Virus record (IMG/VR): IMGVR_UViG_2563367003_000003
Length of the DNA: 8,520 nucleotides
Source of the DNA: a virus
Lineage: Duplodnaviria; Heunggongvirae; Uroviricota; Caudoviricetes
Strand: one strand, 5' to 3'
The position numbers were made by a program, and so were the translations under genes. This document shows, piece by piece, positions 1 through 8,236 of this stretch (the stretch's first letter is position 1; every line of letters begins with the position of its first letter). Below the pieces are notes generated by a model. That model saw only the letters and a list, made by a program, of their open reading frames with translations. It was not told the DNA's origin and did no database searches.

Positions 1-1053
1 ATGACGTTACCACTAAGAGATTACTATCCTATTGAGCGCGCGGCAAAGTTATTAGACTGCGATATTGATGATCTTATTCATTGGGCTGTGACAGGCTGCA
101 TTCGTATTTGTATAAAAATTGAATCTGCATATGGAGTATTAAATATCCCAGATGAAAAAGATGTGGTTAATTTCGATTGTCTGCGTAAGTTTCTGGATTC
201 AGAACCATGTAAATCACGGTTATCTGACCTTGATGCCATTTCAGAAAGGGCGGCAGAACACCATGGTTTTAATTATATAAAAACCAAGTCGAGAATTATA
301 TTTGATTCAATGTGCGAATCTCTAAGTCATTCATATGTAGCGCCCAAATTTGGTGACATAGCAATTGATACTGCATTTGCTTTGTTAAATTATTATAACA
401 GGGGGTTATATTATGGGGAAAATTATCACATATATAGTGTATATCGAATAGCAACGGATGAAAGAGCTGTGGCAGTTGTACCACCAGTATTTAAAGGTAT
501 TCAAGAAAAATACCATAAGTATTTTGTTGAAATAGGCGGTATTTTCGCTTTGGGGGGAAGTTTTTTTGCCAACTATGATTTTAATAAGAAGTTTAAAGCC
601 AACCGAATAATTAATAGCAATATTATAATTGCTTCTGACGTTGATATACATATAGGAGTAATTGTTACTGAGGATGTTTCTTTTGATATTGGTGATTTAT
701 ATATCTTAAAGAGTGATTTTTTAAAAATACAAAATGCTACAAGCTCCAATAGCGAGTTAAGAAAAGATTATGTTAATCCATTGGCAGACACTTTATATTT
801 GTGTGCGGGTAACAATATATTAAGCTCTGAGGATGGAGAGAAAGATATATGCACCAATAAAAACAATATAGAACGATTATCTAAAACAATGAAGGATTTT
901 TTTCGTGCGATGCTTGTTATTCATTATAAAGAACTCGAAAACAATCCGGTAAAACTTGCTGATATATTGACCGCGGAAGCAAAAGAGGCAGGACTCAATA
1001 TGCGCTTTGATAAAAGTACTATATCAAGATGGATTAAGGCATCATCTCAGTAA
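1..1053 (+). CDS. Hypothetical protein, 350 aa, AT-rich cargo-like gene of unknown function; weak HTH-like segments at both termini
   Basis: Long uninterrupted ORF from the track. By eye it is clearly more AT-rich (mid-30s % GC in sampled 60-nt stretches) than the primase and integrase genes (about 50%). N-terminus (YPIERAAKLLDCDIDDLIHW) and C-terminus (KLADILTAEAKEAGLNMRFDKSTISRWIK) look like helix-turn-helix segments. No catalytic motif recognised. ATG at position 1, so the true start could lie upstream of the window. Confidence 0.6.
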   Translation: MTLPLRDYYPIERAAKLLDCDIDDLIHWAVTGCIRICIKIESAYGVLNIPDEKDVVNFDCLRKFLDSEPCKSRLSDLDAISERAAEHHGFNYIKTKSRIIFDSMCESLSHSYVAPKFGDIAIDTAFALLNYYNRGLYYGENYHIYSVYRIATDERAVAVVPPVFKGIQEKYHKYFVEIGGIFALGGSFFANYDFNKKFKANRIINSNIIIASDVDIHIGVIVTEDVSFDIGDLYILKSDFLKIQNATSSNSELRKDYVNPLADTLYLCAGNNILSSEDGEKDICTNKNNIERLSKTMKDFFRAMLVIHYKELENNPVKLADILTAEAKEAGLNMRFDKSTISRWIKASSQ

Positions 1054-1148: not shown

Positions 1149-1469
1149 ATGACTCAATCCGCATTCATTCCACCAACTCCAGAACAGCGCCGCACCATAC
1201 TCGCCGAGTATGGTTTTGACTGCGAAGAACGCATCAGGGAAGAGAAGTGTAAAAAAATGACCACGCTTTCACGCTCCCGGCGCTGGGAACTGGAGAAGAT
1301 CGGTGCTTTTCCTCCCCGTCACTCTTTGGGGCGTTGCTCATGTACCTGGCTGTTAAGTGATGTTTTGTGGTGGCTACGTAATCCGCCAGTTATTGCCAAA
1401 GTGAATAACCCATACGAAAACGCCAAAAAGAAAAGGGAGAGGGAATCCGGTAGCGCCAGAGTTGAATAA
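1149..1469 (+). CDS. alpA: AlpA/Vis-family prophage regulatory protein (HTH excisionase-like), 106 aa
   Basis: Core MTTLSRSRRWELEKIGAFPPRHSLG...W...DVLWWL follows the AlpA pattern (G.SR...W...G.FP...G...W...D..W) as I recall it from E. coli CP4-57 AlpA. Strong SD GGGGGA 3 nt upstream of the ATG. Has a ~30-aa N-terminal extension relative to minimal AlpA proteins. Confidence 0.7.
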   Translation: MTQSAFIPPTPEQRRTILAEYGFDCEERIREEKCKKMTTLSRSRRWELEKIGAFPPRHSLGRCSCTWLLSDVLWWLRNPPVIAKVNNPYENAKKKRERESGSARVE

Positions 1470-1725: not shown

Positions 1726-1765
1726 GCAATATTGCTTGACTCGCTTTTTTGTCATGGCGTATCGT
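1726..1765 (+). promoter_or_regulatory. Candidate sigma70 promoter for the small-gene/primase operon, with an operator-like palindrome abutting the -35
   Basis: TTGACT (1736-1741), 18-nt spacer, TATCGT (1760-1765). Perfect 10-bp palindrome GCAATATTGC (1726-1735) directly 5' of the -35; further GCAAT half-sites at 1704-1708. The upstream part of track ORF 1664-2191 has no RBS and is better read as leader. Confidence 0.35.
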
Positions 1766-2017
1766 TTGCCCGCACCTCATAAAACAGGTGCCGGGTTTGA
1801 CAGCCTGAACAATCAAGCGGGTAGCCGCTATATTTCCGTAATGCGGTTTTTTTGTGCCCGTAATTCCACCCTACCCCGTATTATGGCGGGGCGTAATGGG
1901 GGAGCCTTTGCGCTCGCTGGTTCCTTGATTGCCAGTCTGTCAACCCTGTTACGTCCCGCCACCATGTTTGACAGCGTGCTGGCGAGACTCCGTAAACTTA
2001 ATCAAGGAGCCGCCAAA

Positions 2018-3189: not shown

Positions 3190-5865
3190 ATGAAATCTGA
3201 CATCAGAAAAGAGATTATTAACCGTCTTATCCGTGATTACAACTTCAAAGAAGAAAATAACTACCTCCGGTATGGTGTTTGTCCGCAATGTGGAAAGAAA
3301 GAGTTGTTTACCAGCCTTGAAAGGCCGTACATCGTACACTGCGGGCGTGAAAATAAATGCGGTACAGACCTGCTGACTAAAGAACTTTACCCGGATGTGT
3401 TTTCATCATGGTCAGATCGCTATATCAGTACGAAAGATGAACCATACGCAGCGGCGGCAGCTTATCTCCTGGAGGCACGCAATATTGCTACAGAGCCACT
3501 GAAGGGGGTATTTACCCAGGAGCGATACAAAGACAAGGAAAGCGGCGAACAGGCCGCTACTGTGCGTTTTACGCTGGCTGACGACGTGTGGTGGGAGCGC
3601 ATCATAGACCGACCGGAACGCTTCGAACGGAAGGCGAATTTTTCCGGCAGCTACAAGGGGTTGTGGTGGGCTTATCCGGGAGCAGATTTAAGCAAGGCCA
3701 AAGAAATCTGGATTTGTGAGGGTATCTTTGATGCCATCAGCCTTAACCAGAATGGCATTGCGGCCGTTTCTGTCATGTCTGCCGTGAGCTACCCTGATAA
3801 GGCACTGGAAGAGCTGGCGAAGCTGTGCGGGGATAATCCCCGTCCGGTTATCGTGTGGGCGCTGGATAACGGGCGTGCAGGTGAGCGTTACGCGAAAAAA
3901 CATGCAGAACGCAGCGCCGAAGACGGCTGGAGAACGGCAGCGGCGTTGCCAGGTAAAAACAACAATAAACGCGACTGGAATGATTTACACATCGCCGGAA
4001 AGCTGCGTGGCCATGATGTGAAAAGATACCGTTATTACGGTGATTTATTGCTGGCGAAATCTCCAAGAGATAAGGCACTAATAATGTTTTCCTTTCGTGA
4101 GCGGAAGGAATTTCATTTTACTTTTGATAACCGTGTTTTCTGGTTCAAGCTGGACATTGAGCGCCATATGAAGGCTGTTGAGCGTGTCATTAATGAGCGA
4201 AATGTTGATGAGGATGAAGCGCGCAAAATTGCACTTAAGGAATCTGGTGCAGTAAAAGAAATCGCAAACTGTAACCCAGCGCCGCTTTATTACATTCGAA
4301 ATAATGACACGGATGAAGCATGGTATTACTTCCGTGTTACGTTCCCGGATGGTGCTACGGTGAAAAACACCTTTACATCAGGACAATTAACATCCTCATC
4401 TGAATTTAAAAAACGCCTGTTACACGTGGCAAAAGGCGGTATTTATACCGGAACGACTACGCAGCTTGACGCATTAATAAAAAATGACCTTCCCGCAATA
4501 AAAGAGGTTATTGGTCAGGATTTTATCGGATACAACAAGGCGATTGGGGCATGGCTGTTTAATGATATTGCTGTTTACAAGGGAAAAACTTATGAAATCA
4601 ATGACGAGGATTATTTTGAAATTGATGGCATAAACGCAAAACCATTAAGCGAAAAACCCACATTACAGATTAACTACAAAAAACCGGATGAATTTACAGC
4701 GTCCTGGGTGGAAGATCTCTGGCTGGCTTTTGGTGAAAAGGGAATTATTACCCTGGCTTTCTGGTTGGGCTCCCTGTTCAGCGAACAAATCCGGGATAAA
4801 GAAGAATCCTTCCCTTTCCTTGAAGTCACCGGAGAGCCCGGAACGGGCAAATCAACATTGATTGATTTTTGCTGGCGGCTGTGCGGTCGTGACAACTACG
4901 AAGGAGTTGATCCAACCAAAGGATCAGAGGCGGGCTGGAAGCGCACCTTTGGACAGGTCGCCGGATTGCCTGTTGTTCTGATTGAAGCAGACCGGGGAGA
5001 CAATGCGCAAAAAAGAGGTGCGTTTGACTTCGATAACCTGAAAAGCCTCTATAACGGTGGCGGTATCGGTGTTCGTGGGGTTAAGGCCAACAATAACAAC
5101 ACCTATGACCCGGATTTTAAGGGCGCTATCGTGATTGCGCAGAATGCGCGGGTAAATGCCTCGCCGGCAATTATTGAGCGCCTGATACGCATATACACCG
5201 ATAAAAAACGCCATTCACCTGATACCCGACTGGCGGCGAGACGGCTGGAACTCTACCCCGTCGAGAAGGTATCGGGGTTTATTCACCGGGCGGTAAGTCA
5301 GGAACGGGCGATTATGCAAACGTTCCTGGAAGTATCGCCCGCTGAAACGGAACGCCTTTGCGGATGCGAAAATATTCGCCATCCCCGTATTGCCAAAAAT
5401 CACGCGCAACTTATCGCGCTGGTCAGGGCGCTGAAATGCGTTATCGATATCCCGGATGAATGGCTTGATGCCACATGTCTGGAACTGGAACAAATGGCAA
5501 CGGCGCAGGTTAAAGCGGCGGCGGCTGACTTGCCAGAAGTGATGGAGTTCTGGGAGGCGTTCGACTTCCTGGACGGCATAACAAAATACGGTGTAAACCA
5601 TTACGGCAAGGGATGCCGCGAAGGGATTGCTATCAGTATTCCGCAACTGGCACAGGCTGCCGCCATTCACCGCGTGGAGATCCGAACCGATCGCGAAATG
5701 ATTGAGTTGCTCGGAGCTGGGCGTTCCCGACCGTTGACAGGCCGTAAAACCATTCGTAGTGAGGTGTCCAGACAGGCAAACGCCGGAAAAGGAGTAGCCG
5801 AAGCCAGAGAGCCGGAAGTACTGAAATGCCGGATATTCAGTTACAAGGAGGTCACCGAAAAATGA
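3190..5865 (+). CDS. Bifunctional DNA primase/helicase, P4 alpha-like replication protein (zinc ribbon + TOPRIM-type primase + P-loop NTPase)
   Basis: Track ORF 3166-5865 begins with GTG inside the hairpin; the first ATG at 3190 has SD GGAG (3178-3181). Motifs: zinc ribbon CPQCG...HCGRENKCG (about nt 3279-3363), TOPRIM-like EGIFDAISL (about 3715-3744) with ALDNGRAG (about 3859-3882), Walker A GEPGTGKST (about 4832-4858), Walker B-like VVLIEAD (about 4970-4990). Architecture matches P4-family primase/helicases. Confidence 0.85.
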   Translation: MKSDIRKEIINRLIRDYNFKEENNYLRYGVCPQCGKKELFTSLERPYIVHCGRENKCGTDLLTKELYPDVFSSWSDRYISTKDEPYAAAAAYLLEARNIATEPLKGVFTQERYKDKESGEQAATVRFTLADDVWWERIIDRPERFERKANFSGSYKGLWWAYPGADLSKAKEIWICEGIFDAISLNQNGIAAVSVMSAVSYPDKALEELAKLCGDNPRPVIVWALDNGRAGERYAKKHAERSAEDGWRTAAALPGKNNNKRDWNDLHIAGKLRGHDVKRYRYYGDLLLAKSPRDKALIMFSFRERKEFHFTFDNRVFWFKLDIERHMKAVERVINERNVDEDEARKIALKESGAVKEIANCNPAPLYYIRNNDTDEAWYYFRVTFPDGATVKNTFTSGQLTSSSEFKKRLLHVAKGGIYTGTTTQLDALIKNDLPAIKEVIGQDFIGYNKAIGAWLFNDIAVYKGKTYEINDEDYFEIDGINAKPLSEKPTLQINYKKPDEFTASWVEDLWLAFGEKGIITLAFWLGSLFSEQIRDKEESFPFLEVTGEPGTGKSTLIDFCWRLCGRDNYEGVDPTKGSEAGWKRTFGQVAGLPVVLIEADRGDNAQKRGAFDFDNLKSLYNGGGIGVRGVKANNNNTYDPDFKGAIVIAQNARVNASPAIIERLIRIYTDKKRHSPDTRLAARRLELYPVEKVSGFIHRAVSQERAIMQTFLEVSPAETERLCGCENIRHPRIAKNHAQLIALVRALKCVIDIPDEWLDATCLELEQMATAQVKAAAADLPEVMEFWEAFDFLDGITKYGVNHYGKGCREGIAISIPQLAQAAAIHRVEIRTDREMIELLGAGRSRPLTGRKTIRSEVSRQANAGKGVAEAREPEVLKCRIFSYKEVTEK

Positions 5866-6872
5866 CGATAAAGAAGTTGGTTAACGGTAAGTTTGCTGTG
5901 GACGTGCGGCCTGCAGGAGCAGAAGGAAAAAGATTCAGGCGGCGATTTGATACTCGTGGTGAAGCAGTGGCGTATGAACGCCATGTTCTGATGCACTACC
6001 ACAACAAAGAGTGGGTCGAAAAGCCCATTGAACGTAAAGCGTTAAGCGATCTTCTGGAATTATGGTGGGCGTATCATGGCAAGAATCATCGTTATGGAGC
6101 GATGACGCGGGTAAGAATTGAAGCTGTTCTTTGTGATATGCGCGAACTTGGGATAAACAGAAGCGATCATTTAACCCGGAAAAATATTATCAGATATCGA
6201 CTTAAATTAATGAATCGTGGAATTAAACAGTCAACAGTAAATCGCTATTGTGCCATGATGAGCGGTTTCTTTGAAAAGCTGATTGATGCTGAAGAGTTTG
6301 CGGGTAATAACCCGTTTCGCGAGATACGTAAGTTAAACATTAATCAGCCAGAAATGGCTTATCTTGCACATGATGATATTTCCAGGCTAACCGCGCTTTT
6401 ATCTGGCGATAATCTTAAGGCTGTATTGTTGTGTCTGGCTACAGGTGGGCGCTGGGGTGAGATTGCCAATATTAAAGGTGAGCACATAATTGGCGGAAAG
6501 GTTATTTTTATGAAGACAAAGAACGGCTCAAGGCGGGTCGTTCCAATCGCTAAAGATCTTGAATCACTGGTCAAAGTAAAGGCGACCGGAAGATTAATGA
6601 AACCTAATTATGCAACTGTCAGAAGTGCAATAAGGACTGTGCGGCCTGATTTACCCGTCGGTCAGTCTGTGCATGTTTTACGGCATACCTTTGCCACTCA
6701 CTTTATGATTAATGGTGGAAACATCATCACATTGCAGAAAATACTAGGACACAGCACTATTCAGCAGACGATGACTTACGCGCATTTTGCACCGGATTAC
6801 CTGGCAGATGCCATGAGATTTAACCCGGTAGCCAACATAGTGATCACCGAAGAAAAAGAGCCAGCAGAGTAA
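5862..6872 (+). CDS. int: Tyrosine recombinase, P2-Int-family integrase, 336 aa
   Basis: N-terminus MTIKKLVNGKFAVDVRPAGAEGKRFRRRFDTRGEAVAYE and the catalytic region (GGRWGEIANIK; HVLRHTFATHFMINGGNIITLQKILGH; TMTYAHFAPDYL with the tyrosine nucleophile) closely parallel P2 Int as I recall it. Near-consensus SD AAGGAGGT (5845-5852). The ATG at 5862 overlaps the primase TGA (5863-5865) as ATGA. The track start at 5826 is an upstream in-frame extension. Confidence 0.9.
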   Translation: MTIKKLVNGKFAVDVRPAGAEGKRFRRRFDTRGEAVAYERHVLMHYHNKEWVEKPIERKALSDLLELWWAYHGKNHRYGAMTRVRIEAVLCDMRELGINRSDHLTRKNIIRYRLKLMNRGIKQSTVNRYCAMMSGFFEKLIDAEEFAGNNPFREIRKLNINQPEMAYLAHDDISRLTALLSGDNLKAVLLCLATGGRWGEIANIKGEHIIGGKVIFMKTKNGSRRVVPIAKDLESLVKVKATGRLMKPNYATVRSAIRTVRPDLPVGQSVHVLRHTFATHFMINGGNIITLQKILGHSTIQQTMTYAHFAPDYLADAMRFNPVANIVITEEKEPAE

Positions 6873-6901
6873 CCCGCAGAACGCCGCATTCACAGCAAAA
6901 G

Positions 6902-6927
6902 AGGTCAGTTTCCCGCTGACCTTTTTT
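6902..6927 (+). terminator. Rho-independent terminator downstream of int
   Basis: AGGTCAG (6902-6908), loop TTTCCCG, CTGACCT (6916-6922), then TTTTT (6923-6927). An A-rich run precedes it (CAAAAGA), so it may act in both directions. Confidence 0.7.
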
Positions 6928-7120
6928 GTTGGCCAGAACCAACGGTAACAGCAATGCAATGGTGGTCATATTGCAGTAGTGCCGCCATCAATTTTTTGCT
7001 TCCCCTGATTATCAGAAAGAGTCAAACAGTGGCGAGATACATTTCAATCACAGAGAGTTAATGAGAGTGATACAGAGTAAGTGGGTTTAATTAACATTTT
7101 AAAGGGTCGCGCTAAAGTTT

Positions 7121-7440
7121 GGGGGGGGATGCGCAAAGCGGTTACAACGGTTACAAATTTAAAATCACTTATTTTTGCATTATATATCAATACATTATAA
7201 CTGGTCGGATGAGTTACAAAAGCGGTTACAACGCGGTTACATGTAACCGTTTTGTTAGGTTACAGGCGGTTACAGGTTAAGTTTTTAATTGATTGATAAT
7301 AAAGTGCTTTTTGAAACCTGTAACCGTTGTAACCGCAGTGTAACCGCAAAGCGGTTACAAACAATATCCATTAAAATCATGCTGTTAAGTGGTGTTTTTG
7401 ACTGTTGTAACCGTTGTAACCGCTTTGCGCACCCCCCACC
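7121..7440. repeat. Iteron array of GGTTACA/TGTAACC heptamers around an AT-rich core, bounded by 36-bp near-perfect inverted repeats; candidate replication origin and/or att arm-site region
   Basis: Forward GGTTACA at 7140, 7149, 7224, 7235, 7258, 7268, 7353 (plus partial GTTACA at 7213); reverse TGTAACC at 7242, 7319, 7328, 7339, 7406, 7415. Left repeat 7121-7156 (GGGGGGGGATGCGCAAAGCGGTTACAACGGTTACAA) matches the reverse complement of 7405-7440 at 34 of 36 positions, with the inner 26 perfect. Internal palindromes GGTTACATGTAACC (7235-7248) and TGTAACCGCAAAGCGGTTACA (7339-7359). AT-rich segments at 7157-7210 and 7275-7318. Confidence 0.8.
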
Positions 7441-7663
7441 GGATTATGAGGCAGAGCCCCAAAACAACTGGCCTGACCTCTAACAAAAATGCAACATCAA
7501 TCATTGATTTTTTGGAGCTGTCAGTCACGGGGAGTTGCCCTGTTGTCTGGCAGAAAAATGAAGTATGTACATGCGCGGCGGGGATGGTAAAAAACGTAAT
7601 ACACGCGGCGCAGTTGCCATAAAAAATCTCTCAAAAGCACTCTTTTTGACGCTATTGTTCATC

Positions 7664-7690
7664 TGCACAAAAGTGCACAAATTTGCACAA
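7664..7690. promoter_or_regulatory. Three helically phased direct repeats of TGCACAA (10-bp spacing); candidate regulator-binding array
   Basis: TGCACAA at 7664-7670, 7674-7680 and 7684-7690; a fourth copy at 7756-7762. TTGACG (7646-7651) sits upstream and TAGAGT (7696-7701) downstream. Lies in a non-coding region upstream of the ogr-like gene. Confidence 0.4.
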
Positions 7691-8013
7691 TTTTTTAGAG
7701 TAACTTTTTGCCCATCCGGCCCAGTACTGGCGCGCCCGGAGGGCGATTTCGTGCGTGCACAAAAAACGGTGAGTTTTTCGCGCGCAGGTGACGGGGGAAC
7801 AGCACGCGTTTCAGGGGGTAAATTACATTTTCGCTAAAGGCTGCGGGAATGCCCCGACCGGGTTAGTTTTATCGCCAGCCAGAGCCGTTCTTACGGCAAG
7901 AGAGAACTGATACGGGGAATGTGACGAGTGAGCATGGGAACGGCGCGCCCGTGCGTAATACGCGGCGACTGCTGCGGGTTTATTTGATACAGCCAGAGGG
8001 GGGCGGCAGAAGA

Positions 8014-8053
8014 TATAATAGGTTAAATTTCACACCAGTAAGAGGAGCGTGAT
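8014..8053 (+). promoter_or_regulatory. Promoter -10 element and RBS of the ogr-like gene
   Basis: Perfect TATAAT at 8014-8019. No good -35 at 17 +/- 1 bp (TTGATA at 7984-7989 is too far), which would fit an activator-dependent or extended promoter. SD AGGAG (8043-8047) 6 nt before the ATG at 8054. Confidence 0.4.
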
Positions 8054-8236
8054 ATGTCTTTCCCTTGCCCGGCCTGTGGCGCTTCAGCCCGCACCCGTGG
8101 TCGTTCGTTGGAAGAACACGAACAAAACATCTACAGAACGTATTACCAGTGCAATAATATTGAGTGTGGGGCTTGTTTTTGTACGCTTGAGTCGTTTGTA
8201 CGCATTACTAAGCGCAGGAAGTCGAAAACTTCATAG
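8054..8236 (+). CDS. ogr: Ogr/Delta-family zinc-finger late-gene transcriptional activator, 60 aa
   Basis: C-x2-C ... C-x4-C arrangement (FPCPACGASARTRG...YYQCNNIECGACF...ESFVR) aligns with the P2 Ogr / P4 Delta zinc-finger pattern as I recall it. Good SD and -10. The overlapping track ORF 8049-8381 in another frame is rejected. Confidence 0.8.
   Translation: MSFPCPACGASARTRGRSLEEHEQNIYRTYYQCNNIECGACFCTLESFVRITKRRKSKTS

Follow-up and report, generated by a model that had tools for sequence, protein, structure and literature searches.

A P2-family integrase gene without a recognisable attachment site in the replication operon of a predicted satellite of P88-like phages, and its possible action in trans on the helper

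The DNA examined here, a stretch of 8,520 nucleotides recorded as a tailed virus (IMG/VR record IMGVR_UViG_2563367003_000003; hereafter the window), is, on strong support from comparison with related genomes, the central part of one satellite of about 13 kb that belongs with the P88-like phages of the P2 family. Its replication operon contains a second integrase gene, int2, which codes for an intact P2-family tyrosine integrase, and the island as we read it carries no recognisable phage attachment site (attP) for that enzyme. We favor the reading, to which we assign a probability of roughly 0.45, that this is a single satellite with a P88-type helper and that its int2 product would act in trans on the helper's attachment sites, chiefly by aiding excision. 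More tentatively, a family of P2-dependent satellites may keep an "armless" integrase of helper type, swap it for other types, and use it to govern the timing of the helper prophage's exit from, or entry into, the chromosome; the swapping of alleles would then be the evolutionary trace of such control. Int2, with its putative function, appears to be the one unexpected component in an element of an otherwise known kind, a satellite of P2-family phages.

The int2 gene (5862..6872, + strand) encodes a protein of 336 amino acids (aa) that shares 45% identity with P2 Int over 324 aa (E 1e-107) and matches the Pfam families Int_N (PF24624, 72.1 bits) and Phage_integrase (PF00589, 61.3 bits), both above cut-off. 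It resembles P2 Int (337 aa) in length, in the order of its domains and in its catalytic motifs, and the P2-family assignment made in the initial annotation thus holds. The ATG of int2 (5862-5864) overlaps the TGA of the preceding primase gene (5863-5865) behind a strong Shine-Dalgarno sequence, AAGGAGG at 5845-5851, so that the whole coupling junction occupies 5845..5865 on the + strand; the ATGA overlap and the strong Shine-Dalgarno sequence had been described initially. Downstream lies a Rho-independent terminator of the bidirectional type (6893..6931, +), found by hairpin folding and a terminator scan, whose 17-bp stem folds at -24.6 kcal/mol (z -6.6) and was matched in stability by 0 of 200 shuffled sequences; by prediction, this hairpin closes the primase-int2 transcription unit. 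Five variants of the junction, from islands at hpt, at tRNA-Arg and at a Yersinia site, all have a Shine-Dalgarno sequence and a stop-to-start spacing between -4 and +2 nt. Because of this, and because a single strong terminator follows int2, the gene almost certainly shares a transcript with the primase and is translationally coupled to it, in line with the operon first proposed. In P2, by contrast, int is transcribed with the C repressor gene.

Sequence comparison also indicates that int2 is maintained as a working gene. It is intact in all 13 satellite copies examined, each of which has all five motif patterns that cover the catalytic residues R-K-H-R-H-Y. The ratio of nonsynonymous to synonymous substitution (dN/dS) between satellite-borne copies is 0.06-0.09 at dS of up to 0.6, and it is 0.11 between the window allele and the nearest phage gene, an int of a prophage; by these ratios int2 is under strong purifying selection. 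At least six allele types exist, ~44-69% identical to one another, and in one case the islands that carry different types are 96-100% identical elsewhere; 7 genomes have the window type and 29 that of strain JP538. Between the window and JP538, identity of the DNA is 92-100% up to a point ~10 nt ahead of the int2 ATG and returns to that level at ~6760, whereas inside int2 it is 26-64% identical and the two proteins share 47% of their residues. Several alleles are closest to a phage integrase rather than to another satellite allele type: the window Int2 is 88.7% identical to the Int of a P2-like prophage at chpS-ppa, the JP538 Int2 is 81% identical to the Int of a P88-like prophage at pdxB, and a neighbor-joining tree, an approximate method, interleaves satellite and phage copies. 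We infer that int2 encodes a functional recombinase drawn from the integrase types of the helper phages.

These exchanges could also be read as a sign that int2 is a mere passenger, helper DNA gained by recombination and kept by linkage without use to the satellite. The alleles are indeed nearest to the integrases of the presumed helper group, and relatives in Salmonella and Pectobacterium manage without int2. However, satellites of both Escherichia and Yersinia, and also a relative with a 59% identical primase, have int2 in the same fixed slot and coupled to the primase, and a C-terminal motif described below is constant across the same range. The low dN/dS and the intact catalytic motifs argue against neutrality as well, and 1 kb of useless DNA would be expected to be lost from a packaged genome of 13 kb. 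We therefore consider a passenger gene improbable.

If int2 is functional, the question is where its product would act. The int gene of P2 contains the P' arm repeats in its final ~30 nt, with attP immediately behind the gene. A corresponding doublet, GTCCA-N5-7-GTCCA, was present at the 3' end of 23 of 40 phage int genes and of 0 of 13 satellite copies; P2 and most of its relatives carry the P' arm repeats in the end of int, and the satellite copies differ from them in this tail. The C-terminal tail of every satellite copy has the motif FNP-x-A at its beginning; 11 of 13 copies finish with an Escherichia coli-type ending (...K/EE-P/S-AE), while the Yersinia copy and the copy of island L034 end otherwise. 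The published arm-site sequences, tgTGGaCa as the consensus for P2 and tgccGCCActt for 186-type phages (PMC3448106), form no cluster of either type in the window, and no P2-type arm doublet occurs anywhere in islands L001 and L004. An attP downstream of int2 was also sought by homology to prophages and was rejected, since the homology ends before the int stop codon and no core of at least 12 nt is shared between the islands and the attachment regions of the two nearest prophages. By these searches, the island is without a recognisable attP for int2.

A second, cis-acting integration module would require just such a site. Under this explanation, int2 would give the satellite an alternative chromosomal location through an attP that our searches failed to recognise, which would agree with a gene that is intact and under selection and with the 250 bp of noncoding DNA that follow int2 at the place where P2-like phages have their attP. 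Yet int2 is internal in every island seen, and each island is inserted where the type of its other integrase, int1, predicts. Moreover, islands with Int2 proteins that share only 47% identity, and core-binding domains that share only 32%, have identical DNA from 6809 on, and this common sequence is thus not a specific core for both alleles. Together with the absence of the P' arm doublet from all 13 copies and the want of a core in common with the nearest phages, these observations make a cis-acting module quite unlikely, although somewhat less so than a passenger gene.

One further candidate site came from islands with a tRNA-Arg-type int1, where a doublet of TGGACAAT(A/T)TGTGGAC with 11-nt phasing lies in a hairpin just after int1 (L018 4679-4696; L008 3730-3747; L021 ~2376; also L027, L028, L032 and L033). 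Since the same doublet is found in a Salmonella satellite that lacks int2, it belongs to the int1 module, and we discarded it as a site for Int2; it may be the int1 terminator, an int1 site or a decoy.

The repeats downstream of int2 could likewise have been taken for binding sites of its product. The iterons reported initially are real, with 14 exact GGTTACA in the window against 0.95 expected, 13 of them in 7140-7421. These 13 occur in both orientations around an AT-rich center within a predicted replication origin (7121..7440, no strand assigned), which also holds a conserved ACTGGTCGGA and is framed by inverted arms of 36 nt at 7121-7156 and 7405-7440. A Yersinia enterocolitica relative with a 78% identical primase has the same iterons and the same inverted arms, and a Salmonella relative with a 60% identical primase and no int2 has the primase, a terminator and then GGTTACA iterons, inverted arms and ACTGGTCGGA. 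The three origin regions align, with the iterons as invariant columns. Since a relative without int2 also has them behind its primase, the iterons go with the primase, and it is strongly supported that they form the origin of the primase, which would presumably bind them. From the same comparison, int2 is best described as an insertion between the primase and the primase's own terminator and origin. Because the Salmonella relative has these iterons and inverted arms without int2, we also rejected Int2 arm sites and an invertible switch as readings of the repeats; the iterons furthermore differ from the P2 arm consensus, and their region is collinear in all islands.

The position of int2 between replication gene and origin, together with its predicted co-expression with the primase, might suggest that Int2 resolves satellite multimers, or cointegrates of satellite and helper, into monomer circles for packaging. 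There are parallels for recombinases in such a role, namely Cre/loxP of P1 and ResD/rfsF beside the origin of F. Resolution would nevertheless need a satellite site matched to each allele, and the flanks are the same for alleles 47% identical; P2-family integrases depend on arm sites, which are absent here; and the inverted arms of the origin are also found in the Salmonella relative without int2. We regard multimer resolution as slightly less probable even than a passenger gene.

The hairpin after int2 is shared with another reading frame. An open reading frame (ORF) of 41 aa lies convergent to int2 (6844-6969, - strand) and reaches into the hairpin; its product would start with a hydrophobic stretch, MTTIALLLPLVLANKK..., and Yersinia has a hydrophobic ORF of 25 aa at the equivalent place (sequence read by eye). 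The 41-aa ORF could encode a small membrane peptide or could be there by chance.

Insertion of the island is explained without int2. The window is E. coli chromosomal DNA, with an identical copy in strain N50 and near-identical copies in strains ETEC1747 and C25, and most of it is present in 32 of 5426 complete E. coli genomes. (The ETEC1747 copy, in NZ_CP122722.1, has 8519 nt, one base less than the window; the N50 copy has the window's length.) Comparison with the empty site of K-12 defines an insert of 12,986 bp between direct repeats of 24 bp, ATGAAACATACTGTAGAAGTAATG, which are nucleotides 1-24 of hpt and lie at L001 13603-13626 and 26565-26588. By this comparison, the island enters the start of the housekeeping gene hpt and restores it. 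Arm-like doublets of int1 type, GTGTATCAAT, occur near both ends. The int1 gene, just upstream of the window, encodes a P4-type integrase with an arm-binding domain (E 2e-17 against P4 Int). Three int2 alleles are found at hpt, all with the same int1, so the insertion site goes with int1 and not with int2; the same backbone with a different int1 was found at tRNA-Arg. The "P2-style integration" of the initial annotation is consequently not what we find: the site follows a P4-type int1 that lies outside the window.

It had also been proposed that two adjacent elements meet at an attachment site between int2 and the downstream ogr-like gene. A P2 int would point outward to its attP, and a noncoding stretch does follow int2. 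Given that one 24-bp repeat, an exact match to the empty K-12 site, bounds the whole insert, there is no element junction between int2 and ogr. In addition, the iteron origin that belongs to the primase is found on the side of ogr, and the block of primase, int2, origin and ogr is kept as a unit at three insertion sites, hpt, tRNA-Arg and a Yersinia site, and also lies in islands with other end integrases. An abutment of two elements is accordingly an explanation to which we give almost no weight. An A36-type island also sits at hpt, but its gene order differs.

The suggestion of a satellite-like element with an Ogr-type activator, made at the outset, is supported. The region 7663..7829 (+) is, on strong support from homology, a predicted cohesive end site (cos) of helper type, of the kind found in the P88-like (Xuanwuvirus) phages of the P2 family. 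Among ~500 partially matching E. coli genomes sampled, the large majority match the window only there, at 82-83% identity and in unannotated DNA; in the genomes inspected, the matches lie in P2-like prophages just outside the portal gene, which is the position of cos in P2. Matches were also found in 19 phage records, including P88, P884B11, Chuche, PhiR44_2 and Shae_phiSM, and identity to P88-like phages and prophages is 81-83% over ~165 nt; in P88, the match stops ~290 bp outside the portal gene. A candidate cohesive end of 19 nt, GGTGACGGGGGAACAGCAC at 7787-7805, agrees with the P2 cos end at 14 of 19 positions when compared by eye. A RefSeq "hypothetical protein" ORF of 90 aa (7565-7837, +) overlaps the region; it matched no family and is probably not a real gene.

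The ogr-like gene (8054..8236, +) starts 1181 nt past the int2 stop on the same strand and encodes, as first described, a single-domain protein of 60 aa. It scores 43.4 bits against Ogr_Delta (PF04606; cut-off 26.3), is 37% identical to P2 Ogr over 49 aa (E 7e-8), and has the four cysteines of a zinc finger at positions 5, 8, 33 and 38. These similarities strongly support a putative role as activator of the helper's late genes.

The int2 alleles point to the same helper group. In a comparison that covered 50,697 phage records, the JP538 allele was 81-82% identical to the Int of Chuche, P884B11, PhiR44_2 and Shae_phiSM (next best 53%), and the window allele was 77% identical to P88 Int (next best 58%); the phages nearest to both alleles are all among the 19 records that match the satellite's cos region. 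Within the complete E. coli genomes, a P88-type int (at least 97% nucleotide identity) is present in 30 of 5426. Of the 7 genomes in which the window allele occurs, 4 harbor a P88-type prophage (hypergeometric p 2.6e-8; counting the near-clonal E92 and E94 as one gives 2.7e-6, other strain relatedness being uncorrected).

Given that the arm sites appear to have been lost and that no attP is visible in the island, action in trans on the helper would be the likeliest reading, and two forms of it can be distinguished. In the one that we favor, the island sits in the 5' end of hpt, at the site that goes with int1, and the Toprim primase/helicase most probably replicates it from the GGTTACA origin downstream. 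The helper-type cos and the Ogr-type activator would tie it to the packaging and the late genes of the helper. Each induction of the replication operon would yield Int2 along with the primase, and Int2, being of helper type but stripped of arm sites, would work on the attachment sites of the helper and not on the satellite. Most likely, it would provide the integrase needed to excise a P2-type helper prophage. Derepressed P2 prophages reportedly excise poorly for lack of Int, as described in L. E. Bertani's papers of 1968-1970 on "abortive induction" and the "split operon". In P2, Cox is required for excision and yet represses Pc, the promoter of C and int (PMC3936717).

The second form is interference, in which Int2 would drive integration of an incoming helper genome or occupy its attP, so that helper DNA leaves the packaging pool or the helper is pushed to lysogeny and the satellite gains capsids or a resident helper. 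The evidence of helper-type alleles without attP in cis serves both forms equally, and the enriched co-residence with P88-type prophages would fit a promoted lysogeny. Against interference, Cox is present in lytic growth and blocks integrative recombination of P2 (PMC3936717), and most island genomes have no co-resident helper. We judge interference unlikely, although less so than any of the other alternatives considered here.

Several observations also weigh against helper excision as the role of int2. A degenerate or noncanonical attP could escape motif searches. There is no second cos-like place in 17 of the 20 best island genomes, which means that the island mostly lacks a helper prophage in the same genome. 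The P88-type prophage that N50 carries lies next to licT, and the core-binding domain of its Int shares just 70% identity with that of int2; the closest core-binding domain (91%) is that of the chpS-ppa prophage type, which is in none of the island genomes listed. Finally, the likeness of int2 to helper integrases could merely reflect the opportunity to recombine with a helper. With few second cos-like places and a different core-binding domain in the N50 prophage, the idea that int2 exactly matches a co-resident helper was not borne out.

The reading of the gene that precedes int2 also required correction. Overall, the layout described initially stood, with the coordinates of primase, integrase, iterons and ogr confirmed, but the "P4-alpha-like" label and the P4 background did not. 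The primase gene (3190..5865, +) encodes a bifunctional Toprim primase/P-loop helicase of 891 aa, recognised by Toprim_2 (49.7 bits), Toprim_3 (37.7 bits), the "DNA primase" family phrog_1139 (992 bits) and a weak DUF5906 match (17.9 bits, under the cut-off of 27.6). P4 alpha matches five domains (Zn_Ribbon_Prim, Toprim_3, D5_N, DUF5906 and Pox_D5), whereas a Pfam search with the window primase returned no Zn_Ribbon_Prim, D5_N or Pox_D5. BLASTP against alpha aligned just two stretches, one of 27 aa at Walker A and one of 97 aa in Toprim; with the likeness confined to the Toprim fold and the Walker A stretch, membership of the alpha family was ruled out. A sequence search of the PDB found no usable match. 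Nor is the P4 integrase placed apart from alpha, as had been stated: the P4 order is alpha, terminator, crr iterons, attP and int, on one strand and within ~700 bp.

A single-protein scan of genome contigs found only one near-identical locus. The primase family is large, with 899 homologues at E<=1e-10. Those at 45-52% identity are the replication genes of complete P2-like phages (L012, L013 and L023 among them), in which int, C and cox lie upstream of the primase and an inverted ogr, portal and terminase genes follow. Those at 54-78% identity belong to small islands with a P4-type integrase; of five inspected, four have AlpA or another helix-turn-helix regulator and two have a P2-type capsid gene. 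A survey of 80 primase loci in IMG/VR found nine in which a P2-type int comes immediately after the primase, on its strand, and ~37 phages whose int lies 4.4-6 kb upstream and runs in the other direction; the remainder have a P2-type int in neither arrangement. The family is, judged by this distribution, native to P2-like phages, and the "P4-style replication" of the initial annotation is not supported. In many complete P2-like phages (L012, L013, L023 and the ~37 IMG/VR loci), a Toprim primase/helicase thus stands in place of the gpA rolling-circle endonuclease.

In ETEC1747, starting from the gcd side, the order is a 399-aa integrase (int1), a 350-aa ORF, AlpA, an Icd-like ORF and small ORFs, and it continues towards hpt with the primase, int2, ogr, a 236-aa protein, a 423-aa P2-family major capsid protein and MazEF. 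The 350-aa ORF (window 1-1053, +) adjoins int1 in a low-GC stretch (31-36%), had no match in Pfam, PHROGs or PADLOC, and resembles in position the accessory or defense hotspot of P4-like satellites; PADLOC gave no defense match for the unassigned ORFs. The AlpA-family regulator or excision helper (1149..1469, +) scores 30.5 bits against Phage_AlpA in Pfam (cut-off 21) and is a helix-turn-helix regulator in RefSeq. Inside the annotated Icd-like ORF lies a C4-type antisense RNA with its a1/b1 target and an isrK-like RNA (1759..1966, +), for which the Rfam scores are 74.6 bits for C4 (gathering score 45), 52.2 for isrK (gathering score 50) and 35.6 for c4-a1b1, the last below its gathering score. 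These RNAs point to a putative RNA immunity of the P1/P7/P4 type in the satellite. One Salmonella relative encodes a Derepression-family protein.

The stretch ~165 to 2150 nt past the right end of the window (L001 23685-25666) encodes the 236-aa protein and the 423-aa P2-family (gpN-type) major capsid protein, the first ~120 residues of the latter not being covered by PHROG or Pfam models. The 236-aa protein encoded before it has only weak, coiled-coil-like matches. In the Yersinia and A36-type relatives, a capsid gene of 350 aa is found instead between alpA and icd. Such a gene may be a capsid-size device other than the Sid of P4. The right ends of the satellites carry variable toxin or toxin-antitoxin genes, with MazEF here (L001 25710-26302) and Hok/Gef in the Yersinia and A36-type islands (L008 12904-13053; L019 12327-12467).

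Compared with P4 and the P4-like satellites defined by SatelliteFinder, the element is likewise a small (~12-13 kb) integrated enterobacterial island with a P4-type integrase that has an arm-binding domain, AlpA and C4/CI-type RNA immunity, with an iteron field behind its primase/helicase gene, and with a cos of helper type and an Ogr/Delta-type activator. Of the SatelliteFinder core set, integrase, AlpA and Delta/Ogr are present, and Psu, Sid and Epsilon were not matched by any window ORF or by the 236-aa neighbor in Pfam, PHROGs or PADLOC. The island differs from P4 in a primase outside the alpha family, in an activator of one domain and 60 aa rather than the 166 aa of delta, in its gpN-type capsid gene, and in the second, P2-family integrase of the replication operon, which P4 is without.

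The Xuanwuvirus P88-like phages share with the island the homologous cos-like region, at the same place relative to the portal gene, and among phage integrases theirs come closest to the two commonest int2 alleles. They are, however, full phages of 30-37 kb, and those inspected (P88 and related prophages) replicate with a gpA-type endonuclease and not with this primase. The primase-bearing P2-like phages (the Salmonella and E. coli prophages L012, L013 and L023 and the ~37 IMG/VR contigs) also have a P2-type int and ogr within ~7 kb, but their int is on the opposite strand beside C and cox, and their ogr is inverted beside the portal gene. Phage-inducible chromosomal islands (PICIs) of Gram-negative bacteria and Staphylococcus aureus pathogenicity islands resemble the element in the order int, alpA and pri-rep followed by an iteron origin around an AT-rich center (PMC6092414), although the helper of the window island is of the P2 family, with cos, Ogr and gpN-type genes to match. 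The same account of PICIs mentions no second integrase.

Satellites are known to hijack the capsids, the packaging and the gene expression of their helpers. In the open-access literature that we searched on P4-like satellites, PICIs and the diversity of P2-like phages, neither this family nor a second integrase is described, and a satellite-encoded integrase of helper type that controls helper integration or excision is not described there either. The element represents a type of P2-dependent satellite outside the P4-like definition, with a gpN-type capsid gene and a phage-type primase. If int2 does act in trans on helper attachment sites, this would be a new kind of manipulation of a helper by its satellite, it would explain how a satellite obtains a productive helper from poorly inducible P2-type prophages, and it would offer a simple, testable case of an integrase that works in trans only. 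Integrase genes inside islands could then not be read as markers of island ends or of an island's own mobility.

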